64,000 nt of DNA, taken from assembly GCA_021787445.1 (NCBI GenBank), contig JAJYLV010000003.1, positions 20,437 through 84,436 of the forward strand, read 5' to 3'. Origin of the DNA: Chloroflexota bacterium. Lineage in GTDB: Bacteria; Chloroflexota; Limnocylindria; P2-11E. Positions 8,753-22,376 of the stretch are shown here, in pieces (position 1 is the stretch's first letter; each line of letters begins with the position of its first letter). A program made the translations under genes and the position numbers. The notes beneath the pieces were generated by a model that saw only the letters and a program-made list of their open reading frames with translations, did not search any database and was not told where the DNA came from.

Positions 8753-9478
8753 GCCCCGGCCGGGCACGGCGGGGGAGTGAGTCCTCTGTGCCCCCGTCGG
8801 CCGGCCCTCAGAGGAGGTCACGGCGCGGCGCCCCCCTGACGCACGACGCTCGATGAGGCTGTCGCGGGGCCACAGGATCGTCGCGACCGGATCCTCCGCC
8901 GGCCGGGAGCATGGCATGCCCTCGGTCGCGAGCAGCAGACCTTCATGGAGCACCTCCGACCGCGGCGCTTCATCCCGAGGCCGCGCACCGCCCCGCCCGT
9001 CCGGTCGAGCGTGGAGCGGCGCAGGCGCGCGTCCTAGGTCCGTCGGGCATCCAGGCCGCAGCCCTCCGTCGCGCCGCGCACATCGGCCCCGCGTCTGGCC
9101 CGGTCGCACCGGATCGAGCGAGGCGAGACGTTGGTCGTGCACCGAAAGAGCCGCTTCGCCCTGTCGGCGGCCGTGGCGCGACGGATACGGTGACGGCGCT
9201 CCCGAGGGGTCCGCAGAGAGACCGATCGAACGGAGATCCCATCAAAGCGATCGGTCTTGGGGACGGCATCAAGAACGACCCGACGTGGCGGCACGCAGGG
9301 TCGGTCCCACCGAACGGGATGGAACGGTCCAGACACCATCCCGAAAGCGGAAGCGGATCGCTCGGGGCTTCTTCATGCCCCGACCCCATAGGACCTCACC
9401 CCGCTGCGCGACCGACCCCCGACGACCATCCATACAGCCGTGACGCGGCGTTGGCGCGCCTCGTAGCGTCGCTCACGG

Positions 9479-10317: not shown

Positions 10318-11007
10318 ATGCAATGCCAGCGAGGAAGCGGTGCAGGGATCCTCGTGGTCGATCTTGAGGGCGAGGTTTTCGGCACGCTGCATCGCCTCGA
10401 TCTCGGCGTCCCTCTCTGGTGCGTCGCGGACGCATCGCGCGTCACCCGCGTCGAGGACATGGCCCTGGCGATAGCGGCTACGTACGCGGCGGTCGACTGG
10501 GGCGCGATCCTGAGCCTGGCCAGCCGAGCGCGGACGATGATCGTCTCCCGCGTCCCGGCGCGCGGCGACGCGCTCCACGCTCTCTCGTGCGGGCTCATGG
10601 GATACCTCGCCGCGGACCTCGGTCCCGACGCGCTCCGGCGGTCGATCGAGGGAGCTCTGCGCGGTGAGCACGCGTACCAGAGGGACCTCGTCGGCGAATG
10701 GCTCGACCTGCAGCGTGGACGGAGCCCGAACGGGGACGTGCACGGGCTGACCCCCAGGCAGCTCGAGGTCCTCACCTTGGTGGCTCGTGGCGCGGCCGAC
10801 AAGGAGATCGCTCTCACGCTCGGCATCAGCACGGCGACCGCACAGAAGCACGTGACGAACATCCTCGAGCGGCTGCGGGTGCCGAACCGGGCCGCCGCGG
10901 TCGCCGCCGCGTTCAGCCCGGCCGCGAGCTGGATCGGAATAGATCGTGGCCGGCCCGAGGAGGACGTGGACCCGGTCCCGGTCGCACCGGGCTATGCGCG
11001 CGTCTAG
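10318..11007 (+). CDS. LuxR-family transcriptional regulator (atypical receiver + HTH)
   Basis: C-terminal LuxR HTH LTPRQLEVLTLVARGAADKEIALTLGISTATAQKHVTNILERLRV. N-terminal receiver-like ILVVDLEGE. The track ORF starts at 10267; MQCQ at 10318 is preferred. Confidence 0.65.
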   Translation: MQCQRGSGAGILVVDLEGEVFGTLHRLDLGVPLWCVADASRVTRVEDMALAIAATYAAVDWGAILSLASRARTMIVSRVPARGDALHALSCGLMGYLAADLGPDALRRSIEGALRGEHAYQRDLVGEWLDLQRGRSPNGDVHGLTPRQLEVLTLVARGAADKEIALTLGISTATAQKHVTNILERLRVPNRAAAVAAAFSPAASWIGIDRGRPEEDVDPVPVAPGYARV

Positions 11008-11680
11008 CGCGCTGCTCGTGCTGTGCGTCGCCGCTCTCGGGGCCGCGGCGACCGGCGAGGCGTCGGGGGTCGCCCCTGCGCAGCAGGTCCCGTCCAGCGG
11101 TCCCCTCCTCTCCCCGGACGTCGATGCGGGAGTGACAAGCGGGCCGGTCGCTCCGCTCCCGCCGACGTCCGGACCACCGATGGAGACGCCGACGATGACA
11201 CCGACCGCGACGGCGGAGCCGGCGCCGGCCGCGAGCGGATCGCCGTCGCCCGCGGCGATCCGGGCGGATCTGCGCCTGCAGCTCCCGCGTCTCGGCATCG
11301 ACCTGCCGCTCGTCATCGGCGATGTCACTCGGGACACGCCGGGACCGGCTTACCCGGGCGGCACGCCGGAGCGCGTCGCGCTCATCTACCCGACGAGCGC
11401 GCTTCCGGGGAGCGGTGGGAACACGTACGTCTACGCCCACGCCCGCCGAGGCATGTTCCTCTCGCTCTGGGGCGCGCAGCTGGGCGACACGCTGCGCATC
11501 CGATCGGAGAGCGCGGGGTCGGTGCTGACGTACACCGTCACGCGGGTCGTGCCGCGAGTGCCGCCGACCGACACGAGCTGGCTCGATCAGGGTGGGCCCG
11601 AGCGCGTGACGCTTCAGACCTCGACCGGCGCGCTCCCGACCGATCCCCGTTTCGTCGTCGTCGCCGTGCGTGATCGGTAG
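10994..11680 (+). CDS. Sortase-fold protein (class E/F-like) with Ser in place of catalytic Cys
   Basis: Signal/anchor MRASSALLVLCVAALGAAATG followed by a Pro/Thr-rich linker. Sortase-like core GNTYVYAHARRGMF...LGDTLRI...VLTYTVTRV...ERVTLQTSTG...R (His and Arg conserved; TLXTC is TLQTS). Start set at the ATG at 10994 inside track ORF 10946. Confidence 0.55.
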   Translation: MRASSALLVLCVAALGAAATGEASGVAPAQQVPSSGPLLSPDVDAGVTSGPVAPLPPTSGPPMETPTMTPTATAEPAPAASGSPSPAAIRADLRLQLPRLGIDLPLVIGDVTRDTPGPAYPGGTPERVALIYPTSALPGSGGNTYVYAHARRGMFLSLWGAQLGDTLRIRSESAGSVLTYTVTRVVPRVPPTDTSWLDQGGPERVTLQTSTGALPTDPRFVVVAVRDR

Positions 11681-11767: not shown

Positions 11768-12388
11768 GTGGGCCTGAGGGTCTGCGTCGTCGACCGCTCT
11801 GACGGCCGCGCGGCGTATCCGCGCCTCGACGAAGCGAAGGTCGACGTGATGGCGCACGTCCCGCGCGTCGAGCTCTTCTCGCCGGATCTCGCGCGCGCCT
11901 ACGACGTCGTTCTGCTCGGCGCGCTGGGCAGCGACGCCGCGCGACCCGCCTGGCAGGAAGCGATCCGGCACGTGACGCTCGTCCGGCCCACGCTCGCGGT
12001 CGTGGAGAGCTCGGACGTCGGCACGATCGCGCTCCTGGCGCCCGTCACGGGCCTGCGGGGATGCGTCGACCGCGCGGTCACCCCCGACGCGATGCGCCGC
12101 AGCCTCGAGGTGGTGGCCAGAGGCGAGACCGCGTTCCCGCATGCCGCGGTCTCGTCGCTCCTGCAGGCGGACCGCGGCTCACGCGCCACGATCCGCCTGC
12201 GGCTCACGCCTCGGCAGCAGGAGATCGCCGAGCTCATCGCGCAGGGCGCGACGGATCGGGAGATCGCGCGCACCCTCCACATCAGCGAGTCGACGGCGCA
12301 CAAGCACGTCCAGAACGCGCTGCGTCGCCTCGGCGCGCGGACGCGGAGCCACCTCGTTGCACGCATGGGGTCCATCTCGTCTACCTAG
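11768..12388 (+). CDS. LuxR-family response regulator, atypical (phospho-Asp position not conserved)
   Basis: Receiver-like N-terminus LRVCVVDRSDG...DVVLLGALG. C-terminal LuxR HTH LTPRQQEIAELIAQGATDREIARTLHISESTAHKHVQNALRRLG. Confidence 0.65.
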   Translation: MGLRVCVVDRSDGRAAYPRLDEAKVDVMAHVPRVELFSPDLARAYDVVLLGALGSDAARPAWQEAIRHVTLVRPTLAVVESSDVGTIALLAPVTGLRGCVDRAVTPDAMRRSLEVVARGETAFPHAAVSSLLQADRGSRATIRLRLTPRQQEIAELIAQGATDREIARTLHISESTAHKHVQNALRRLGARTRSHLVARMGSISST

Positions 12389-12453: not shown

Positions 12454-12876
12454 ATGAGCCCCAGGCCGGTGGGACTCCATGGTGACGGCGGGCAGAGCCT
12501 CGTCGAGATCGCTCTTGCCCTTCCGCTGCTGCTCGCCGTCGTCGTCGGGATCGCCGACGTCGCCTCCGTCTACCGCCGCACGATCGCGGTCACGAACGCC
12601 GCTCGCGAGGCGGCGATGTTCGCCGTCCGCGAGCCCGGCGCGACGCTGACCCAGGTCGTCCAGCGCGCCTGCGACGAGATGAGCGGCACCCTGGACGCGC
12701 CCTGCCCTCCCGAGGTGACGGTCACGGCCTCGCCCATCCCGTCGCGCGGCGCCACCGTCAGGGTGGACGTCGTCTACCGGTTCACGCCGATGTCGCTGAC
12801 GCTCGTCGAGCGTCTCCTGCCGAGCGCGGAGATCCCCATCCGTGCCGCCGTGGTCTTCCCGGGGTACGGACGATGA
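12454..12876 (+). CDS. TadE-like pilus assembly protein
   Basis: 140 aa; N-terminus GQSLVEIALALPLLLAVVVGIADVASVYRR is typical of the TadE/TadF pseudopilin-like family. ATG at 12454 inside track ORF 12061. Confidence 0.7.
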   Translation: MSPRPVGLHGDGGQSLVEIALALPLLLAVVVGIADVASVYRRTIAVTNAAREAAMFAVREPGATLTQVVQRACDEMSGTLDAPCPPEVTVTASPIPSRGATVRVDVVYRFTPMSLTLVERLLPSAEIPIRAAVVFPGYGR

Positions 12877-13322
12877 GGATCGGACGCGCGGGCGAGCGCG
12901 GCGTCAGCACCGTCGAGCTCGCGCTCATGCTGCCCGTCGTCCTCGTCCTGCTCCTCGGCTCTCTCGACCTCGCACGCGTGATGAACGCGGAGCTCGTCGT
13001 CAGCTCGGCGAGCCGCGAGGGCGCACGGTACGCGACGCTCCATCCCAGCGCGGCGCCGGCGGCGATCGTCGACGCGGTGCTCGCGAGGTCGGTGCCGCTG
13101 GATCGCGAACGGGTCGTCGTGAGCGCGAGCTACGACGAGGGTGCGGGAGCGCTGCCGTGGCCCGAGACGGGCCTCCCGGCGTCCGGCGCCACCGCCCGCC
13201 GCATCGCCGTCACCGTGGACGTCGCCTATCCCTGGCGCGCGGCGACGTTCTTCGGCGGCTCGATCCTGGGGCGGAGCGGGGTGCGGCTGGGTTCGACGTC
13301 AACGATGGAGGCGTGGTGGTGA
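12873..13322 (+). CDS. TadE-like pilus assembly protein (second copy)
   Basis: 149 aa; GVSTVELALMLPVVLVLLLGSLDLARVMNAELVVSSASREGARYA; start ATGA-coupled to upstream stop. Confidence 0.7.
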   Translation: MRIGRAGERGVSTVELALMLPVVLVLLLGSLDLARVMNAELVVSSASREGARYATLHPSAAPAAIVDAVLARSVPLDRERVVVSASYDEGAGALPWPETGLPASGATARRIAVTVDVAYPWRAATFFGGSILGRSGVRLGSTSTMEAWW

Positions 13323-14851
13323 ACCATCCGAAGGGCATCCTGAGCCGGACCGAGGGGCAGAGCCTCGTGATCGTCGCCCTCTCGATGATCGTCCTCATCG
13401 GCGCCCTCGCGTTCGCGATCGACTGGGGCTACGGGCTCACGCAGCGGCGAGCGATGTCGAACTCCGCTGAGGCCGGCGCACTCGGCGCCGGTGTGCTCCT
13501 CGCGCGCTCCGTGGTGCCCACGACCGACGGCTTCGTCTTCAGCCGTTCTCAGGAGGAGACCTACTGCGCCGCGGAGGCCGCCGCCGCGCTCGACCGTGAC
13601 TTCGCGCCGGCGGGGGCCGAGTACTCGCTGACCGTCGAAGGCTTTGCCGACCGCGCGACGCAGCCGGCCTGGAGCCTCAGCGGCATCGCGTGCCCGGCCG
13701 CCTCGCGCACGACCCTCCCGATCGAGACCCGCACGCTCCGCGTCGTCGCGACGGTGAGCTACCGCTCCCTCATCGCATCGGTCGTCGGCTGGCCGCAGAT
13801 GACGGCCGCCGGCTCGATCCGGGCGCGCATCGTGGGCGTGCCCTACGACGCGTCCGGACGGAACGTCTGGCCGATGGTCCGCCACTACGACGCGAGCGAC
13901 CTGGTGCAGAAGTGCGACGATCCGTGCGATCCCCTCGGCGCCGAGCCGTTCACGTTCTGGTCGCCGCAAGGCACCGAGCCGAACATGGTCTACGGCAACT
14001 TCAAAGGCCAGGTCGACCTTTCGAAGCGGTCCTCGCGCGAGCCGGACCCGACGATCGACCAGCTGATCCACCAGTGGGATGAGAGCGGATCGCCCGAGGC
14101 GGGCACGCAGCCGAAGCCGGACCTCAGCGGCAATTGCAAGGGCTCCTGGGACACCATCGGCGGCGACGACGAGAGCGTCGACAAGCAGTGCAGCATCCCG
14201 AACTGGTTCTATTACTTCTTCGGCGGGGAGCTGAGCCTCGACGAAGCACCGACCGGCCACCCCGGCGCGGAGCCGCCGAGCCCGATCGGGCCGCGGCCGA
14301 CCATCTGCGCCGACGTGCCCGGCTGGATAGAGGCACCGTCGTGCGCGCCCGGCAAGGCAGGCGTCGGCGACTGGGTCGAGACGGCGACGGGCAACGTCGG
14401 CGTCAACAACTCCGAGCTCATGGTCGAGGCGATCCGACGGGCGTATGCCGAGGGCTACGGCTTCACGACGCCGTACTCCGACCTTCCGGTACCCGGCAAG
14501 CAGAACATGGTCTTCGGCAAAGCCCTCGTCGTCACGATCTTCATGTGGGACTGCGCGGAGACCTACTCGTCGAACGCGCCGCAGGGTGAGCGCTGGTCCC
14601 TCATCGACGGCGGCACGCTGCCCGACGGCACGAACGACTGCTCGCAGATCCCTCAGACGGGGAGCACGCCGATGCCCGACCGTGTGCACCTGTTCACCGT
14701 CGTGCCCTTCACCTTCTACGAGGGGCTCATCGAGACGAGCTCCATCCGCGGCTACTGGGGCGGAGCGGTGGGGTCCGCCGACGGCTGCCCCACCGGCGAC
14801 TGCTCGCTGGACCCGCTGACCAACACCGTGATCTTGAGACCGGATGAGTGA
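13313..14851 (+). CDS. TadG-like / pilus-assembly protein with N-terminal Tad pseudopilin segment
   Basis: N-terminus KGILSRTEGQSLVIVALSMIVLIGALAFAIDWGYGLTQRRAMSNSAEAGALGAG (TadG/Tad_N-like), then a large Cys-rich extracellular domain. Likely GTG start at ~13313-13319, in frame with track ORF 12842. Confidence 0.6.
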   Translation: MVVNHPKGILSRTEGQSLVIVALSMIVLIGALAFAIDWGYGLTQRRAMSNSAEAGALGAGVLLARSVVPTTDGFVFSRSQEETYCAAEAAAALDRDFAPAGAEYSLTVEGFADRATQPAWSLSGIACPAASRTTLPIETRTLRVVATVSYRSLIASVVGWPQMTAAGSIRARIVGVPYDASGRNVWPMVRHYDASDLVQKCDDPCDPLGAEPFTFWSPQGTEPNMVYGNFKGQVDLSKRSSREPDPTIDQLIHQWDESGSPEAGTQPKPDLSGNCKGSWDTIGGDDESVDKQCSIPNWFYYFFGGELSLDEAPTGHPGAEPPSPIGPRPTICADVPGWIEAPSCAPGKAGVGDWVETATGNVGVNNSELMVEAIRRAYAEGYGFTTPYSDLPVPGKQNMVFGKALVVTIFMWDCAETYSSNAPQGERWSLIDGGTLPDGTNDCSQIPQTGSTPMPDRVHLFTVVPFTFYEGLIETSSIRGYWGGAVGSADGCPTGDCSLDPLTNTVILRPDE

Positions 14852-15587
14852 TGACATGAGGAAGGCTTCAGCGCTTCTTCTTCTGACCGCGTTCGTCCTG
14901 GCCGGCCTGACCGGGTGGTCCATCTACACGATCGCGACGCGCGTCGCACCCCCGCCGGCCGCGGCCGCGGGCCCGGCGGCGGCCCCGAGCGTCGAGGTGG
15001 TCGTCGCCGCGGCGGACATCCCGGTCCGCAGCGTGATCACCGCGAAGCAGCTCGAGCGCCGCTCGCTGCCGGCCGACGCCGTCCCTCCCGCCGCCATCCG
15101 CTCGATGAGCGAGGCGCTCGGCCAGACGACGCTCGTGCCGATCTCCAAAGGACTGCCGATCGTGACGACGACCCTCGTCGCCGCCGAGGGCCGCACGGGC
15201 GCGTCGCTGACGGTCGACCCCGGAAAGGTGCTCGTCGCATTCCCCACCAGCGACCCGCTCACGACGGCCGGCCTCGTCGCGGTCGGCGACCACATCGACA
15301 TCCTCGCCACGATCGCCGTCGGCAAGGGCGAGGACATCAAGAAGACGCAGACGACGCTGCAGGACCTCGAGGTCGTCGAGGTCCTGCGGCCGACGAAGGA
15401 TCAGCCGGGGCGCGTGCAGGCACTGACACTGGAGGTCGACCACCAGGTCGCGCTCGTCCTGAAGTACCTCCGCGACGCCCAGGCGACGATCGACATCGTC
15501 GTGCGCTCGACCGTAGAGCACGCGCTGACCAAGACGACGACGGTCGACACGACCTATCTCGTCGACACGTATGGGATCACGCGATGA
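14844..15587 (+). CDS. cpaB: Flp pilus assembly protein CpaB/RcpC
   Basis: 247 aa; N-terminal TM, then SAF-like AAADIPVRSVITAKQLERRSLPADAVPPAAI and a beta-rich C-terminus; positioned upstream of cpaF. Confidence 0.7.
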   Translation: MSDDMRKASALLLLTAFVLAGLTGWSIYTIATRVAPPPAAAAGPAAAPSVEVVVAAADIPVRSVITAKQLERRSLPADAVPPAAIRSMSEALGQTTLVPISKGLPIVTTTLVAAEGRTGASLTVDPGKVLVAFPTSDPLTTAGLVAVGDHIDILATIAVGKGEDIKKTQTTLQDLEVVEVLRPTKDQPGRVQALTLEVDHQVALVLKYLRDAQATIDIVVRSTVEHALTKTTTVDTTYLVDTYGITR

Positions 15588-16996
15588 ACGCCGTACACAC
15601 TCCTATCGGTGATCTTCACGCCGCCCTCGAGCGGGCCCGTCGGCCCCGGGCCGACGCCGTCGTTCCGGCGACGGCCGTCAAGGCGCCTTCGTCCAACGAC
15701 GGCATCGAGCGAGCCGGCTGCGCGAGGGTGCGCACGGAGAAGGAACAGGAGCTCGTCCATTCCGTCCACACCCGCGTGACGCCGGCGCTCGGCCGTCTCG
15801 GGGACGAGATGTCGCGCGACGCGCTGAATACGGCGCTGCAGGACGAGATCGCGACGGCCGTGAGCGAGCAGGACCTGCGCGTGACCGACGAGGACCGCGG
15901 CCGTCTGCTCGGGGCCGTCCTCGACGAGCTCGTCGGGCTGGGGCCCATCCAGGTCCTCGTCGACGACGACGACCTCACTGAGGTGATGGTCAACGGACCG
16001 GAGCAGGTGTGGATCGAACGCAACGGCAAGCTCTTCCTCACGGACGTGCGCTTCCGGGACGCCGACCACGTCACGCGGATCATCCAGCGCATCGTCGCCC
16101 CCATCGGCCGACGCTGCGACGAGTCGTCGCCCATGGTCGACGCGCGCCTCGCCGACGGCTCGCGTGTCAACGCGATCATCCCGCCGCTCTCCCTCGTCGG
16201 ACCCGTGCTCACGATCCGCAAGTTCCGGCGGGCGCCGCTGACCCCCGCCGACCTGCTCCAGAACGGCACGATCGGACCGGAGGCGCTCGAGTTCCTCTCC
16301 GCCTGCGTCCGCGGGCGCCTCAACGTCATCGTCGCCGGCGGAACGGGTGCCGGGAAAACGACGCTGCTCAACACGCTGTCGTCGTTCATCGGAGCGCGCG
16401 AGCGCGTCGTGACCATCGAGGACGCCGCGGAGCTGCGCCTCGCGCAGGTCCACGTCATCACGCTCGAGTCACGGCCCCCGAACATCGAGGGCCAGGGCAC
16501 GGTCACGATCCGAGACCTCTTCCGGAACGCGCTGCGCATGCGACCGGATCGCATCGTCATCGGCGAGTGCCGCAGCGCCGAGGCCCTGGACATGCTCCAG
16601 GCGATGAACACCGGCCACGACGGATCGCTCACGACCATCCACTCCAACGGTCCGCGCGACGCGCTCGCGCGGGTCGAGACGATGGTCCTCCTCGCCGCCG
16701 ACCTCCCGCTGCGCGCCATCCGCGAGCAGATCGCGGCGGCCATCGACCTCGTCGTCTACGTCGAGCGCATGCAAGACGGACAGCGCCGCGTCACGCAGAT
16801 CACCGAGGTACGCGGGATGGAGGGCGAGATCATCACGATGCAGGACATCTATTCGTTCCAGCGGCGCGGCTTCGACGGCGAGCGCATCAGCGGTGCCCTT
16901 CTCCCGACCGGCATCCGGCCCGGATCCGCCGAAAAGCTCATGGCGCACGGGATCGACGTGCCGCCGAAGTGGTTCGGCTACGGGGACGCGCGGTGA
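15584..16996 (+). CDS. cpaF: Tad secretion ATPase CpaF/TadA
   Basis: Walker A VAGGTGAGKTTLLN, Walker B/Asp box RVVTIEDAAEL, His box, and NTGHDGSLTTIHSNGPRDALARVETMV; typical T2SS-E/VirB11-like. ATG at 15584 (ATGA overlap with the cpaB stop). Confidence 0.85.
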   Translation: MNAVHTPIGDLHAALERARRPRADAVVPATAVKAPSSNDGIERAGCARVRTEKEQELVHSVHTRVTPALGRLGDEMSRDALNTALQDEIATAVSEQDLRVTDEDRGRLLGAVLDELVGLGPIQVLVDDDDLTEVMVNGPEQVWIERNGKLFLTDVRFRDADHVTRIIQRIVAPIGRRCDESSPMVDARLADGSRVNAIIPPLSLVGPVLTIRKFRRAPLTPADLLQNGTIGPEALEFLSACVRGRLNVIVAGGTGAGKTTLLNTLSSFIGARERVVTIEDAAELRLAQVHVITLESRPPNIEGQGTVTIRDLFRNALRMRPDRIVIGECRSAEALDMLQAMNTGHDGSLTTIHSNGPRDALARVETMVLLAADLPLRAIREQIAAAIDLVVYVERMQDGQRRVTQITEVRGMEGEIITMQDIYSFQRRGFDGERISGALLPTGIRPGSAEKLMAHGIDVPPKWFGYGDAR

Positions 16997-17799
16997 CCGT
17001 GCCGGAGCCTCTGGTCCCCGCCGTCCTCGGTGCGGCCGCGATGGCCACCGCTGTCGTCGCGCTGTGGACGCCGGGATGGCGCCGACGGCACGTTCTCGGA
17101 CAGCTCGTCTCCCGGCTCGTCGACGAGCGCGGCCTGGCGCGGGACCTCGGCGGCGGCCGCCGACGCTCGTCGCGCCTCGCTCCCGTCCCGACGCGGACCG
17201 GCCCGATCGACCGGATCGCGCGGACGCTCGCGTCGCTGTCGCCGTGGGAGCGGAGGCGACGCTCGCGGTTCCGCGAACAGCTCGCCGATAGCCTTTCCCT
17301 GCTCGCGAGCTCGGTGCGGGCGGGGCACACGCTGGTGCAGGCGTTCGAGCAGCTCGCGCGCGAGGCGCCCGCGCCGACGGGCGCGGCGTTCGCGGCCGTC
17401 GTGCGCGAGATCGGTCTCGGCGCCGCTCACGACGACGCTCTGCACCGCCTCGCACGCCGCTTCCCTTCGGAGGAGGTCGACCTCTTCGTCACCGCGGTGA
17501 ACGTGCAGGACCAGGTCGGCGGCAGCCTCGCGAAGGTCCTCGACTCGATCGCCTACACGCTGCGCGAGCGCGCGCGCATCGAAGGCGACATCCGCGCGCT
17601 CACGGCGCAGCAGCGCTACTCGGCGTACGTGCTCGCGCTCCTGCCCGTCGCCGTCGCCGCGATGCTCACCCTCGTCGGCCCCGACTACATGGCACCGCTG
17701 TACGAGCCCGGGGCACTGCGGATCGTGCTGGTCCTCGCGGGACTCCTGATCCTCGTCGGGTTCCTGATCATGCGCCGGATCGCGGCGATCGATGTCTAG
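16993..17799 (+). CDS. tadB: Tad pilus assembly inner-membrane protein TadB (T2SS-F domain)
   Basis: GTG at 16993 overlapping the cpaF stop; N-terminal TM, then T2SSF-like LADSLSLLASSVRAGHTLVQAFEQLAREAP...VNVQDQVGGSLAKVLDSIAYTLRER, and C-terminal TMs. Confidence 0.75.
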   Translation: MTVPEPLVPAVLGAAAMATAVVALWTPGWRRRHVLGQLVSRLVDERGLARDLGGGRRRSSRLAPVPTRTGPIDRIARTLASLSPWERRRRSRFREQLADSLSLLASSVRAGHTLVQAFEQLAREAPAPTGAAFAAVVREIGLGAAHDDALHRLARRFPSEEVDLFVTAVNVQDQVGGSLAKVLDSIAYTLRERARIEGDIRALTAQQRYSAYVLALLPVAVAAMLTLVGPDYMAPLYEPGALRIVLVLAGLLILVGFLIMRRIAAIDV

Positions 17800-19693
17800 G
17801 CGGATGGCCGCGGCGCTCGCGGTCGCCGCGTTGCTGCTGGCGCTGGCGACACCGGCCCTCGCCGACGACGTCGTCCGCCTCGTCGTGACCTCGACGGACG
17901 TGACCGCGTTCCCGCAGGTCGCGCTCACGCTGGCCGTCAGCGGACCGGACGGCCGCCCTGTCGTCCTCGATCCGTCCGAGATCGAGGTGTGGGTGGCGGG
18001 CGAGCGGCTCGCCGCGACCGTCAGCTCGAGCGTCGAAGCGCGTCCGGTGGACGTCGTCCTGGTGCTCGATCGCAGCGGCAGCATGGCCGGGACGCCGCTC
18101 GCCGATGCCACGCGCGCCGTCGGCTCCTTCCTCGCGCGCCTCGGACCGCGCGACCGCTCGGCGCTCGTCGGGCTGTCGACGCGCGCCGAGGCCGTCCGGG
18201 CCCTCACGACCGACCGCGCCTCCGTCGCCGCGGCGGCCACCCGCCTCTCAGCCAGCGGCGATACGGCGCTCTACGACGCGGTCGCTCTGGCTGCCCGCCA
18301 GCTTGACGAGGGCGGCCGTGCGCAGGCGCGGCAGGCGATCCTCGTCCTGACCGACGGGCACGACACCGCCAGCGCGACCTCGCCGGCGGATCTTCAGCCT
18401 CTCGTCGCGCATCGCGCCGTACACGTCGTCGCGCTCGGCGCGGCGCCCGACCTGGACGCTCTCAAGCGGCTCGCCGCCGCGAGCAGCGGAGGGACCGTCG
18501 TCCGCGCTCCCACGTCCGCGCAGCTCGACGCGATCTACGCCTCGCTCGCCGAGAAGCTGCGGGCGGACACCGGCGTTCGCTTCCGGTTCGCGACCGAGCA
18601 GTACGCGCCGGAGATGACCGTCGTCGTCGTCGCCCGCCGTGAGGGGAGCGTGATCGGACGGACCCAGCTCGTCATCCCGCTGCCAGTGCGGATCCCCGAC
18701 ACGGGCGCGATGCCGGCGACGACCGCCGCGCCGCAGATCGTGCCCGCGGTAGCGATGGTCACGACGCCAGATGCGAGCGGACGCGACCGACCGCTCATCG
18801 CCGGTCTTCTCGCTTCGGCGACGAGCCTCGCGCTCGTGGCCTGGGCACTCTCCGCCTTCGGGACGGCGGCCCGCCATGGCGCGCCCATCGAGAACGTGCC
18901 GCTCGCGTCGCCGGCCCGACGCCGCGGCACGTCCTCGATGCGCGCGCGGCGCACGATCCGCGGCATCGCCACCGGCGCGGCCCGGCTCACCCGCTCGAAG
19001 CCGTCACCCTCCGCGGATCTCCAGCTCGATCGGGCCGGGCGTCCGTTCGGCCTCGATCCGCTCGAGCTCACCGGGATGCGGCTCATCATCGTCGGCGGGC
19101 TCGCGGCCCTCGCGTTCGGCGGTGCGGTCGTCATCGGAGCGGACGGCATCGGGATCACGGCGTCCGCCGCATGGGGCGTCGTGGCGGGCTACGCGCTCCC
19201 CACGGTCGTCATCCGCGTCGCGACGACCGCGCGGCAGACCGCCATACGTCGGGCGCTGCCGACGACGCTCGACATGCTCACCCTCTGCGTCGAGGCCGGG
19301 CTGTCGCTCGACGGAGCGCTGGCCCACGTCTCGCGGCGCTCGCGCGGACCGCTCTACGACGAGATCGAGCGGCTCCTCCTCGAGCTGCAGATGGGCGTCG
19401 ACAGGCGAGACGCGCTACGTCACCTCGCGCTGCGCTGCGACGTGCCCGAGGTCACCCGTCTGGTGAACGCGATGCTCCAGGCGGAGGTCCTCGGCGTCGG
19501 CATCGGCCGTGCTCTCCAGGACCAGGCCCAGGAGGTGCGCACGCGCCGCCGTCAGCGTGCCGAAGCGCTCGCGCGTACCGCCCCGGTGAAGATGCTGTTC
19601 CCCATCGTCCTCCTCATCTTCCCCGCGATGTTCGTCGTCATCCTCGGCCCCGCCGTCCCCCGCCTCGCGGCGATCTTCGACGTCGCCCGCTAG
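17792..19693 (+). CDS. vWA domain fused to TadC (T2SS-F domain) pilus assembly protein
   Basis: Signal peptide (ALATPALA|DD). vWA with MIDAS VLDRSGSM...SGDTALYDAVA...LVLTDGHD. TM segment (PLIAGLLASATSLALVAWALSAF). TadC/T2SSF domain LPTTLDMLTLCVEAGLSLDGALAHVSRR...AMLQAEVLGVGIGRALQDQAQEVR plus terminal TMs. Confidence 0.7.
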   Translation: MSRRMAAALAVAALLLALATPALADDVVRLVVTSTDVTAFPQVALTLAVSGPDGRPVVLDPSEIEVWVAGERLAATVSSSVEARPVDVVLVLDRSGSMAGTPLADATRAVGSFLARLGPRDRSALVGLSTRAEAVRALTTDRASVAAAATRLSASGDTALYDAVALAARQLDEGGRAQARQAILVLTDGHDTASATSPADLQPLVAHRAVHVVALGAAPDLDALKRLAAASSGGTVVRAPTSAQLDAIYASLAEKLRADTGVRFRFATEQYAPEMTVVVVARREGSVIGRTQLVIPLPVRIPDTGAMPATTAAPQIVPAVAMVTTPDASGRDRPLIAGLLASATSLALVAWALSAFGTAARHGAPIENVPLASPARRRGTSSMRARRTIRGIATGAARLTRSKPSPSADLQLDRAGRPFGLDPLELTGMRLIIVGGLAALAFGGAVVIGADGIGITASAAWGVVAGYALPTVVIRVATTARQTAIRRALPTTLDMLTLCVEAGLSLDGALAHVSRRSRGPLYDEIERLLLELQMGVDRRDALRHLALRCDVPEVTRLVNAMLQAEVLGVGIGRALQDQAQEVRTRRRQRAEALARTAPVKMLFPIVLLIFPAMFVVILGPAVPRLAAIFDVAR

Positions 19694-19940: not shown

Positions 19941-21686
19941 GTGTCCACGCTCCGTCCATTCAGGGCCATCGCGTTCGTTGCGGCCGTCTCGCTCCTGTTC
20001 GCCCTGTCGAATGTCGCGTACCTGCGACCGACGTCGAAGGAGGCGGCCGTGGCCGCGGCCGCGAGCCTCAATGTCGATCTCGACCAATGCGCCAACCTTT
20101 CGACGCCATGCCACTGGCAGAACGGGGACCTGAACAAGAACAACTCCGCCTACTACGAAGGCGATGTCGTCCCATTCCGCCTCGTCATCAACGACCTCGC
20201 GATGGGCAAGCACAGCATCCACATCGATTACGACTTCCTCGCGGGGAACCCCGGACACGTCGCGTACGACTTCCTCGCGCGCTACGACGCCACCGAGTCG
20301 GTCGACCCCTGCGGCGCTAATGGCGACGCGGACTCGCCGCTGTGCAACGCCGCCCTGCCGACGCCGATCGCGGTCGCCATCCCCCCGGACGCCTCGGAGC
20401 CGTTCACGGGCCTCACCGTGAGCGGAGCGGAGACGGCGTCCGGCCTCTCGCGGCAGCTGGTGATGTACGGCGCGATCGACACCGTGACCGACCAGCCGAC
20501 GGTGAGTGCGCCGACGGTCGCCAGCTCCAGCACGCGGGATGTCGTCGTCACCTTCTGGACGACCACGGGCAACGCCGACGTCATGCTCCTCTGGGGCGGC
20601 CACCTGGCGACCACCGCGTACTGGGACAGCTCGGGCCCCGGAGGCGCCCAGGAGATCTCGGGCGCCAGCTGGCACATGCGCACGCAGAACCTCGACGATG
20701 CCCCTGCCAGCAAGAACCAAGACAGGAGCGTCAACTCGAGCGCCCTGCCCACACCGACGCCGACGCCCACACCGACGCCGACGCCCACACCGACGCCGAC
20801 GCCCACACCGACGCCGACGCCCACGCCCACGCCCACGCCCACGCCCACGCCCACGCCCACGCCGACACCCACGCCGACGCCGACACCCACACCGACGCCG
20901 GCACCGGTACCCGTGTACGGGCCCGTCTACCTCGCGCCACCCGTCCCGCTCGTCGGAACGCTCGTCGTCATCCACTACGACGACCTCAACAAGAACGCCA
21001 TGCGGGACACCGCGGAGATCGGGCTCCTCGGCAGCTTCTCGGTGCTGCACAACGGCGCCCCGACCGCCGTCATCACGACAGACCCGACCGGTACCGTCAG
21101 CCTCACGCTCGCTCCCGGCACCTACGCGGTGCGGGAGAGCCTCGAGTCCGGCTGGTACAGCATCGACCCGGGCGGCATGACGCCGACGAAGACCGTGACC
21201 ATCGTCGCGGGCCAGACGACGACCGTGTCGTTCGGCTGCGCTCGTGTGCTCATCCCGTCGACGTCGCAGGGCGTACGCATCCAGGTCCGGACGTACGAGG
21301 ATCGCGACCACGACGGCAGCCTCGACACCGGCGAGCCCGGCCTCGCGGGCTGGACCTTCTCGGTCTTCGACTCGCAGGGCGCGACCGTCGCCGGCGTCAC
21401 GACCGATGCTCAGGGCAGCGCGACGACGATCGCCCTCGCACCCGGTGCCTACACCATCGTGCAGCAGCCGCAGGCCGGCTGGTTCAACACCGACCCAGGC
21501 ACGGCGTCAGCATCGAAGCAGACCCTCCTCGTCTCGGAGCCGGTGACCGTGATCTTCGGCAACGCGCGAGTGGAGCTTCCGTCGACCTCCACCGATCCCG
21601 CGGACGATGGCGCGCCCGGATCGTCGACCGTTCTCTTCCTGACGCTGGCCGTCGTCTCCGTCGCGCTGCGCCGGGCCATCGGCTGA
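19941..21686 (+). CDS. Secreted/cell-surface protein with PT-repeat linker and tandem Cna-B/SdrD-B-type domains and C-terminal anchor-like signal
   Basis: GTG start; signal peptide [20 protein letters not shown]; ~45 (PT)n residues; two repeats with [20 protein letters not shown]-type Ca-binding B-domain signatures. C-terminus [37 protein letters not shown] (motif + hydrophobic segment + basic tail). Confidence 0.7.
20747..20910 (+). repeat. Tandem nucleotide repeat encoding (Pro-Thr)n linker (18-bp cccacaccgacgccgacg units then 6-bp cccacg units)
   Basis: Directly visible in the sequence at 20749-20905; produces the spurious MGVGVGV ORF on the opposite strand. Confidence 0.9.
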
Positions 21687-21746: not shown

Positions 21747-22376
21747 CTATCGGGCCTGGACGATGAGCACCGGGCCGCACGCGCTCGAGGTGAGGCTCGT
21801 CTGCAACGTGAGCGGTGCGAGGGGGAGCACGGGCTGCGTGCATCCGGCCTGCTGGAACGCTCCCGTGACGTGATACGTGAAGCCATCCGCGGTGACAGCG
21901 TCACCCGCGCTCCAGCCGGCGATGCGTCCGAAGCCGGTGTAGGCGTGACCCATGAGATAGCGGTCGGACAGGCAGGTGAAGCTGCGGATCTGCGTTCCGA
22001 CGTCCGTACGTCCGCTGCAGTCCGTGTACGGGACGATCGGGCCGGCGATGCCGAGCCGCGGGTAGCAGAACCAGGTGCCCGGACATGCGGCGGGCGCCGC
22101 GGAGCGGGCGACCGGCGCGCCGGCCGTCGCGTTCGGCCCGGCGGGCATGGGGACCCTGGCGGACGACAGCGCGGTCGGAACGGGCCGCGCCGGCGGCACA
22201 GGCTCGGGCGACGTCGCCGCTGAGGTCGATCCTTCGGTCGGCCCGACCGATGTGGACGGCTCGCTCGGTGTCGGCGACGGCAAGGCGCCGACCACAACGG
22301 GCCCGGGAGTAGCGCCGTGCGCCGCCTCCACGCACCCCGCCCCACCCACTGCCACCGCAAGAAGGAGCGCCGCCAT
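21747..22376 (-). CDS. Sortase-fold protein paralog (Ser at canonical Cys position), lipoprotein-like N-terminus
   Basis: ATG at 22376 inside track ORF 21747..22709. MAALLLAVAVGGAGC signal, Pro/Ser/Thr-rich linker, core YLMGHAYTGFG...GDAVTADGFTYHVTG...PLTLQTSLTSSACGPVLIVQAR, parallel to the protein at 10994. Confidence 0.5.
   Translation of the reverse strand: MAALLLAVAVGGAGCVEAAHGATPGPVVVGALPSPTPSEPSTSVGPTEGSTSAATSPEPVPPARPVPTALSSARVPMPAGPNATAGAPVARSAAPAACPGTWFCYPRLGIAGPIVPYTDCSGRTDVGTQIRSFTCLSDRYLMGHAYTGFGRIAGWSAGDAVTADGFTYHVTGAFQQAGCTQPVLPLAPLTLQTSLTSSACGPVLIVQAR

Follow-up and report, generated by a model that had tools for sequence, protein, structure and literature searches.

Our analysis of a 64-kb stretch of DNA (the window; ~72% G+C) from an uncultured Chloroflexota bacterium (Limnocylindria) suggests that the gene at 19941-21686 (+ strand), hereafter the target, encodes a secreted, adhesin-like protein of a Tad/Flp pilus locus, and that the C-terminus of this protein is a dedicated sorting signal for sortase homologues encoded at the same locus. 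We put the probability of this reading at about 0.7. Judging from sequence, synteny and predicted structure, this is most likely a sortase-type sorting system in which both the signal (LPxT[S/A/T]T instead of LPXTG) and the nucleophile (Ser instead of Cys) are unlike those of every described class. To our knowledge, textbooks and all curated family models define sortases as cysteine transpeptidases for LPXTG-like motifs. Here, a large natural clade (family 1) and a rarer second family (family 2) carry Ser, with the other active-site positions strictly kept (in family 2, apart from Arg) and with a conserved substrate tag of their own.

A conserved C-terminal tag on different passenger proteins

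A sequence-only reading of the window had described the target as a 581-residue protein with a signal peptide, a linker of some 24 Pro-Thr (PT) units, two SdrD_B-like domains and a terminus composed of LPSTS, a hydrophobic segment and RRAIG, and had proposed this terminus as a non-canonical sorting signal cognate to Ser-variant sortase-like genes nearby. The open reading frame (ORF), Pfam and hydropathy bear out the domains and the tripartite end, the N-terminus resembles a signal peptide when judged from the sequence, and both Ser-variant genes are present; the PT linker is there as well, with 25 repeats rather than about 24 (Table 1). The proposed pairing of signal and enzymes gains support from an alignment of 36 tails and from the gene linkage described below.

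The 36 tails were drawn from loci fetched, with 10-kb flanks, through homologues of the enzymes and not of the substrate; every ORF of these loci was screened for a C-terminal motif with a membrane segment and then a basic tail behind it. The tails are distinct (non-identical), and in each of them LP[S/N/A]T[S/A/T]T leads into an acidic patch, after which come a membrane segment and a basic tail. Residue counts over the six motif positions are L36; P36; S29/N6/A1; T36; S32/A2/T2; T36. Position 5 is never G and Thr at position 6 is invariant, and a looser regular expression that did not force the final Thr returned the same set of tails; LPxT[S/A/T]T describes the motif better than LPSTS. Downstream of the motif, Asp or Glu occupies position +2 in 24/36 tails and position +3 in 19/36. 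The layout of hydrophobic segment and basic tail is kept in all, with Arg-rich ends in 36/36.

P0001 and P0031 are the sole full-length homologues that have the SdrD_B module of the target, and both end in QLPSTST, a membrane segment (TM) and RR (FGNAQVQ-LPSTST-SED-TM-RRGPRMA and FGNARVQ-LPSTST-AAEPDP-TM-RRVTRLS, respectively). The terminal copy is LPSTST in 3/3 close homologues, whereas the linker between the B domains varies (IPSTSQ in the window, IPPTTQ in P0001 and VPPTTQ in P0031). Since the linkers drift and the end motif does not, conservation is stronger at the terminal copy than in the repeat linker. Seven further proteins came from a search that used just the C-terminal half of the target, and each one that reaches the tail keeps LPST[S/A]T. 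The sequence-only reading had named homologues without a conserved motif as a reason to abandon the proposal; the homologues keep it.

According to Pfam, the passengers of the tag include ice-binding-like proteins (PF11999; L059, two at L080, and L118), SdrD_B proteins with DUF11 repeats (L103, L106, L108, L123 and L090) and an Ig-like protein of the Big_13 type (L134). Because the tag is found on ice-binding-like and Ig-like proteins without SdrD_B, it is not a by-product of the SdrD_B repeat. Other members of the family defined by the N-terminal domain of the target have LPAAG, [LIV]AFTG or LPPSG in the place of the tag, and a membrane segment and RRR tail come after it. That these relatives carry ordinary sortase signals in the same place suggests that sorting by sortases is general in this protein family. 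The P0001 tail falls narrowly short of the cutoffs of the LPXTG-anchor hidden Markov models (HMMs; 14.0 versus 15.9 for TIGR01167 and 16.8 versus 20 for PF00746).

Some substrates have a doubled motif, in which a degenerate copy lies just upstream of the terminal one (P0283 and P0286; L100 8804-9520; L097 2489-3130; L134 2538-3671). The forms seen are LPSTA[RK]-LPSTST, LPSTSG-LPK-LPSTST, LPTTAD-LPR-LPSTST, and LPPTSG separated by 9 aa from LPSTST. Each copy of such a pair could serve as a recognition site for one of the two sortase-like enzymes.

Two families of sortase homologues with Ser in place of Cys

Sortase-like 1 matches the Pfam Sortase domain (PF04203) with 43.4 bits, above the cutoff of 26.6, and its orthologue at L001 scores 51.3 bits. 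Family 1 comprises at least 587 clusters at 90% identity (E<=1e-3), and the best 120 of the 587 homologues all carry [LVI]TL[QR]TS (120/120). In a set of 194 non-identical sequences, made up of these best 120 homologues and genomic copies, the triad positions hold S226 in 194/194, H165 in 193/194 and R235 in 193/193, and the T-L-Q-T-S-T-G block is essentially invariant. Family 1 also has invariant acidic residues (D130, E142, D181, D209 and E219), any of which may be a candidate for completing a triad. Searched against PDB sequences, the family-1 profile gave weak matches to solved sortases (best E 1.2e-4). The best of these is the class C sortase 8t28, in which LTLVTCT aligns with family-1 LTLQTSt so that Ser falls on the catalytic Cys; in 4d70, DRYIVKA aligns with PRFvvvA, Arg on Arg. 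From the Pfam and PDB sequence matches together we infer a sortase fold for sortase-like 1. None of the NCBIfam models for class A-F sortases (NF0337xx) came near its cutoff (16.5-20.5 versus 160 for class E, 14.8 versus 166 for class F and 12.4 versus 160 for class C). Contigs representing one genome per species hold 106 family-1 copies, nearly all in records of Chloroflexota or Candidatus Limnocylindria. Most copies lie beside a nuo operon, and a minority, the closest relatives of the window among them, lie in Tad loci.

Family 2, to which sortase-like 2 belongs, is rare, with 40 cluster representatives among 1.84 billion proteins. H144 is invariant in 31 family-2 sequences, and Q192-T193-S194 is nearly invariant. 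The AlphaFold2 (AF2) model of sortase-like 2 has a predicted local distance difference test score (pLDDT) of >93 over residues 100-209, and in a Foldseek comparison of this model with the PDB the best 50 matches are all sortases (best E 2.4e-5; template-modeling score relative to the target 0.5-0.6). We also considered sortase-like 2 as a family-1 paralogue recognizable by BLASTP, which gave no significant pairwise match. Alignment of the two family profiles by hhalign was weak (E 0.0019, probability 14.5%) but collinear, pairing PRLGI of family 1 with PRLGI of family 2, H with H, GD with GD, and LTLQTS with LSLQTS. The homology of family 2 to family 1 is thus a matter of the fold search and this profile-profile alignment.

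The two families reach Ser through different codons. The active-site Ser is encoded by TCN in 77/77 family-1 genes (TCG 59, TCC 17, TCA 1) and by AGY in 50/50 family-2 genes (AGC 46, AGT 4). As each codon class is one step from the Cys codons TGY, this pattern suggests two independent Cys-to-Ser changes, kept by selection.

A distant family-2 member, P0279, reads LQTC, with Cys, where the others read LQTS; it is the only such member and could be a relative with the ancestral state. Sortase-like 2 begins with MAALLLAVAVGGAGC (residues 1-15), a lipobox-like signal, followed by a Pro/Ala/Ser-rich linker of ~85 residues. Five Cys are conserved in its catalytic domain, which suggests disulfides and hence an extracytoplasmic protein. 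The ORF is 21747-22376, with a longer frame extending to 22709 (- strand).

Linkage of the tag to both enzyme families

The target and sortase-like 2 genes are convergent and separated by a 61-nt gap. A convergent pair is likewise found at L001, a 448-kb contig of a Chloroflexi metagenome-assembled genome that encodes P0001 and matches the gene order of the window: TadG-like, GerE, Sortase, two TadE, CpaB, TadZ-like, CpaF, TadB, TadC, P0001 and a convergent gene for a 237-aa protein. The L001 sortase reads LTLQTS, and the product of the convergent gene reads LSMQTS after MGHAY. These matches indicate that both accessory genes, and their Ser residues, are conserved.

More generally, the motif, membrane segment and basic tail were found repeatedly at other loci with homologues of either sortase-like gene, often in the adjacent gene. 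Near family 1, the tag is present in the window, L001 and L009, and LPST[S/A/T]T genes lie directly upstream of sortase-like 1 at L059, L080 (two genes) and L081, where there are neither Tad genes nor sortase-like 2. For family 2, whose loci were collected with an alignment of 13 closer sequences of the 31, we counted over the 59 sortase-like-2 genes with at least 250 nt of downstream sequence. A strict automated test found a convergent LPxTST-tailed gene for 25/59, a count that omits one duplicate and two off-frame false positives (the "LPVTAR" matches at L113 and L121, which were discarded). Inspection raised the number to 31-34/59. Six cases were added for a tail missed by the pattern (L104) or a Flp pilin gene in between (L087, L092, L106, L111 and L147), and three more (L088, L099 and L107) have an ORF that runs on into flp. 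With the flanks capped at 10 kb, a number of Tad loci stop short of where the substrate gene would be expected. By our estimate from amino-acid frequencies, LPxTxT would occur by chance in the last ~50 residues of ~1 in 1000 proteins; against this expectation, 25/59 excludes chance.

Neither a TLxTC sortase nor an LPXTG, LAXTG or NPXTG C-terminal signal was found in the 64-kb window (any frame) or in ~1.5 Mb of related loci. The sequence-only reading had held that a canonical signal elsewhere, together with a canonical Cys sortase, would count against it.

In three metagenome contigs, an LPSTST ORF continues in frame, without a stop codon, into a Flp prepilin (L099 10391-14557, L088 1546-2367 and L107 1311-2876, all on the - strand), with the junction sequence TM-QGGKGGH-MSTIGKFVRREEGQG/LVEYALII. 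The L099/L088 junction lies on a run of G (ggggggaaagggggg), where an assembly indel is possible, and the L107 junction sequence differs. Substrate and flp genes are separate but adjacent in other contigs, for example L150 289-2811 (-) and L106 4625-8953 (-).

A proposed sorting reaction and its alternatives

We infer cleavage and its site, the role of Ser as nucleophile, the acting enzyme and the acceptor along the following lines. The target would be exported by Sec through its N-terminal signal peptide and kept membrane-bound by its hydrophobic C-terminal segment and RR tail, and the motif would then be bound by sortase-like 1 and/or sortase-like 2. By analogy with sortases, Ser, activated by the invariant His, would attack the Thr carbonyl of LPST/ST, forming an acyl(ester)-enzyme and releasing the membrane anchor. 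The intermediate could be resolved by an envelope amine, resulting in covalent anchoring to a wall or pilus component, or by water, resulting in release. The strict conservation of His and Ser, and of Arg in family 1, speaks for a functional active site and against a decayed one.

In an extended form of this model, two lineages would have swapped Cys for Ser independently, and their enzymes would together, through a serine acyl(ester)-enzyme, join LPxT[S/A/T]T adhesins by a covalent bond to the Tad/Flp pilus or to the wall at the pilus base. There are hints of a link to the pilus, as the substrate gene is directly beside flp in many loci and runs in frame into flp in three contigs with two junction sequences, and yet we consider this extended form unlikely.

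Several observations weigh against a dedicated, Ser-based sorting system. In characterized sortases the Cys is essential, and its substitution, as reported for mutants of Staphylococcus aureus SrtA, strongly impairs activity. Sortase-like 2 gave no Pfam or NCBIfam match even at E<=10, and family 2 has no conserved Arg at the family-1 triad position, its C-terminal R being variable. The main family-1 clade, beside the NADH dehydrogenase (nuo) operon (L012-L058 and others), has no LPxTST gene within 10 kb, so that the family-1 linkage comes from the Tad-type loci together with L059, L080 and L081. The tail of the window protein matched neither of the LPXTG-anchor HMMs (TIGR01167 and PF00746). 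In addition, our search for Cys sortases spanned the loci, and a canonical one could be encoded elsewhere in the genome.

The lack of the canonical Cys in both families, and of a conserved Arg in sortase-like 2 as well, would also be expected if the Ser-variant homologues were dead pseudo-enzymes that bind the LPxTST tail, as a chaperone, retention receptor or pilus-assembly adaptor, while the target is anchored by its own membrane segment. Such a binding-only role fits the gene linkage and the motif conservation equally well. However, the fixation of S, H and R in family 1 (194/194, 193/194 and 193/193), along with the whole TLQTSTG block, is more like an active site than a binding surface, and Ser is fixed in both families through different codon classes. 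The dead position of pseudo-enzymes usually tolerates several residues. The tail, for its part, retains every element of a cleavable signal, from the motif through the spacer and membrane segment to the basic end. We therefore see only a small chance that these proteins are inactive; if they were, they would be the first case in which a sortase fold has taken on the role of a tag receptor.

It is also conceivable, although quite improbable, that the signal is real but is processed by an enzyme encoded elsewhere, either a Cys sortase that tolerates Ser at position 5 or an unrelated protease, with the Ser-variant genes serving Tad biogenesis in some other way. Streptococcal class A sortases are reported to tolerate LPXTS and LPXTA, and the 64 kb of the window are all of this genome that was examined. 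Set against this are the lack of any TLxTC sortase or LPXTG/LAXTG/NPXTG signal in the window or the ~1.5 Mb of related loci, and the association of the tail with two Ser-sortase families in differing contexts, including substrate-sortase pairs without Tad genes (L059 and L080).

Finally, the caution of the sequence-only reading that LPSTS might merely belong to the B repeat, as an incidental linker ending SdrD_B in a protein tail-anchored by its C-terminal helix, has some basis in the similar IPSTSQ after the first B domain, in the position of the motif directly after the FGNA strand that closes SdrD_B domains and in the missing anchor-HMM match of the window tail, but it is already largely refuted, and has very little left in its favor, given the same hexapeptide and tail on proteins without SdrD_B, the invariance of L, P, T4 and T6 in 36 tails while inter-domain linkers vary, and the strong gene linkage to sortase homologues.

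Relation to known sorting systems

The closest parallel to the proposed Ser-based system is the sortase/LPXTG system of monoderm bacteria (classes A-F; PF04203, MEROPS C60), with which it shares a tripartite signal, a motif beginning LPxT, N-terminally membrane-anchored enzymes with a sortase domain or fold, the triad His and Arg (in sortase-like 1), and the clustering of enzyme and substrate genes. It differs in that the catalytic Cys is replaced by Ser in both families, with P0279 of family 2 as the one exception, in that the tag is LPxT[S/A/T]T without G at position 5, and in its host, Chloroflexota (Limnocylindria). The two defining features of the classical system, the TLXTC motif of Cys transpeptidases and the LPXTG pentapeptide, are thus both lacking here. 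Class C pilus sortase loci likewise combine a sortase homologue in a pilus cluster with a Cna-B/SdrD_B-type adhesin. In contrast to those loci, the pilus genes here are of the Tad/Flp kind (type IVc; CpaF, TadB/C, TadE, and Flp in related loci), not genes for sortase-polymerized pilins, and the nucleophile would be Ser; a pilin motif or E-box was not seen either, though no search was aimed at them.

Position-5 variants such as LPNTA and LAXTG are known among Cys sortases. Class D/E sortases and streptococcal SrtA, which are relaxed at this position, likewise do not need Gly there, and LPNTS(T) among our tails resembles LPNTA. In those Cys transpeptidases, however, the deviation is a tolerated exception, whereas in our tails the regular pattern is Ser, Ala or Thr at position 5 and then Thr. 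The logic of a lineage-specific motif, helix and basic tail served by a dedicated enzyme is also that of exosortase/PEP-CTERM, archaeosortase/PGF-CTERM, rhombosortase/GlyGly-CTERM and MYXO-CTERM, described by Haft and colleagues. The enzymes of these systems are polytopic membrane proteins unrelated to sortase, and none is encoded in the locus; the MYXO-CTERM model gave a weak, non-significant match to the P0001 tail (E 0.73). With SdrD/Cna-type adhesins (microbial surface components recognizing adhesive matrix molecules), the target shares the SdrD_B stalk, and its Pro/Thr-rich linker takes the role of the SD or wall-spanning repeat. It differs in lacking an A-domain of that type, and the NCBIfam SdrC/SdrD models score 22-25 bits versus cutoffs of 1700-2500.

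In the literature searched, we found nothing on TLQTS, on Ser-for-Cys sortases, on LPSTS(T), or on sortases in connection with Limnocylindria, Chloroflexi or Tad; LPXTS appeared solely in papers on Cys sortases (for example PMC9520033 and PMC8225981), and the word "serine" is absent from a 2024 structural review of sortases. The curated HMM libraries recognized neither the tail nor sortase-like 2. If Ser is a working nucleophile, the sortase scaffold would support serine chemistry, and the enzymes could be insensitive to oxidation and offer an orthogonal recognition motif for protein ligation. Predictions of the surface proteome of Chloroflexota, a group abundant in soil and freshwater, would also gain a new sorting signal from the tag. 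We know of no cultured Limnocylindria model. Given the linkage to Tad/Flp genes, a sortase-type step might attach adhesins to a type IV-like pilus or sort them together with it; the coupling of adhesins to the pilus, if true, would combine type IV (Tad) pilus assembly with adhesin attachment of the sortase type.

The target gene and its surroundings

The features of the locus are collected in Table 1. The target ORF starts with GTG, with a Shine-Dalgarno-like stretch (GGAAGGGG) 8-15 nt 5´ of it, and its G+C content at third codon positions (GC3) is 0.90, usual for real genes of this window. A scan for promoters and terminators around the gene gave nothing informative. At the N-terminus, homologues of the target likewise have a basic and then a hydrophobic stretch. 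The N-terminal domain is predicted to form a beta-sandwich (AF2 pLDDT 87.7) and, in a whole-protein search, was common to ~35 proteins with 42-58% identity and many different C-terminal halves. It has no Pfam or NCBIfam match and no PDB fold match at E<1e-3; we dropped a cohesin- or integrin-like identity, for which the beta-sandwich fold matches were too weak (E>3e-3). PF17210 (SdrD_B) matches the target in two stretches (54 bits versus a cutoff of 29.7), PF17802 (SpaA/prealbumin-like) matches with 35.5 bits, and the second SdrD_B domain carries a loop resembling a Ca site. Mean Kyte-Doolittle hydropathy at the C-terminus peaks at 2.36 over aa 562-576.

Table 1. Positions in the window of the target gene, the two sortase-like genes, the Tad genes and their features.
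Feature	Position	Strand	Basis
Target gene; secreted surface/adhesin-like protein with proposed LPSTST-type C-terminal sorting signal	19941..21686	+	ORF, GC3, Pfam, homologues
Signal-peptide-like N-terminus, basic then hydrophobic	19941..20021	+	judged from sequence
N-terminal conserved domain, ~230 aa (contains WQNGDLN)	20067..20747	+	homologue conservation, AF2 model
(PT)25 linker, aa 270-319	20748..20897	+	repeat count in sequence
Two SdrD_B/prealbumin-like (Cna-B type) domains	20952..21575	+	Pfam PF17210, PF17802
IPSTSQ linker between B domains, aa 438-443; non-terminal motif look-alike	21252..21269	+	sequence
LPSTST, proposed recognition motif	21576..21593	+	36-tail alignment
Acidic/polar spacer, 11 aa	21594..21626	+	sequence, tail alignment
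C-terminal hydrophobic segment, 14 aa	21627..21668	+	hydropathy
Basic tail RRAIG	21669..21683	+	sequence
Sortase-like 1, membrane-anchored Pfam Sortase-domain protein; likely start ATG 10994	10946..11680	+	Pfam PF04203, homologues
His165 (YAHAR) of sortase-like 1	11432-11446	+	sequence
Ser226 (VTLQTS/TLQTS) of sortase-like 1	11609-11623; Ser codon 11621-11623	+	sequence
Arg235 (PRF) of sortase-like 1	11645-11653	+	sequence
Sortase-like 2, 209-aa secreted or anchored protein, predicted sortase fold	21747..22376	-	translation, AF2, Foldseek
His144 (MGHAY/GHAY) of sortase-like 2	21939-21950	-	sequence
Ser194 (LTLQTS/LQTS) of sortase-like 2	21795-21806; Ser codon 21795-21797	-	sequence
LuxR/GerE-type regulators flanking sortase-like 1	10318-11007; 11768-12388	+	Pfam GerE in L004/L005 gene calls
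TadE	12454-12876	+	Pfam
TadE (second)	12873-13322	+	Pfam
TadG-like	13316-14851	+	Pfam, gene calls
CpaB/RcpC	14844-15587	+	Pfam
CpaF ATPase	15584-16996	+	Pfam
TadB	16993-17799	+	Pfam
vWA-TadC fusion (vWA, von Willebrand factor A)	17792-19693	+	Pfam

The best full-length database match to the target has 50% identity over just 39% of the query. In other public assemblies of the same organism, the contigs break within the repeat coding for (PT)25 and the gene is called as two halves (compare the end of L004, 18747-19679, and P0281), which is why the full-length protein is absent from the protein database.

The Tad operon (12454..19693, +) sits between the two sortase-like genes, and the target is its last gene. 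Tad genes were called by Pfam on the window ORFs and by gene calls and Pfam on the identical contig L004 (offset +1194), which gave T2SSE, two T2SSF, two TadE and RcpC/SAF; the same set is found in L001. A Flp pilin ORF was found in the 64-kb window neither by motif search nor by tblastn, and a TadV prepilin peptidase gene did not turn up either, though no search was aimed at it; flp genes adjoin LPSTST genes in many related metagenome loci. Between window positions 9000 and 23000, the Tad operon has no recognizable TadZ/CpaE, while the syntenic L001 has a TadZ-like AAA_31 gene. The arrangement of a sortase gene flanked by GerE genes recurs in L001 and beside P0031. In the TadC (T2SSF) fusion of the window, a signal peptide and a von Willebrand factor A domain precede TadC at the N-terminus, and L010 and L011 have the same fusion.

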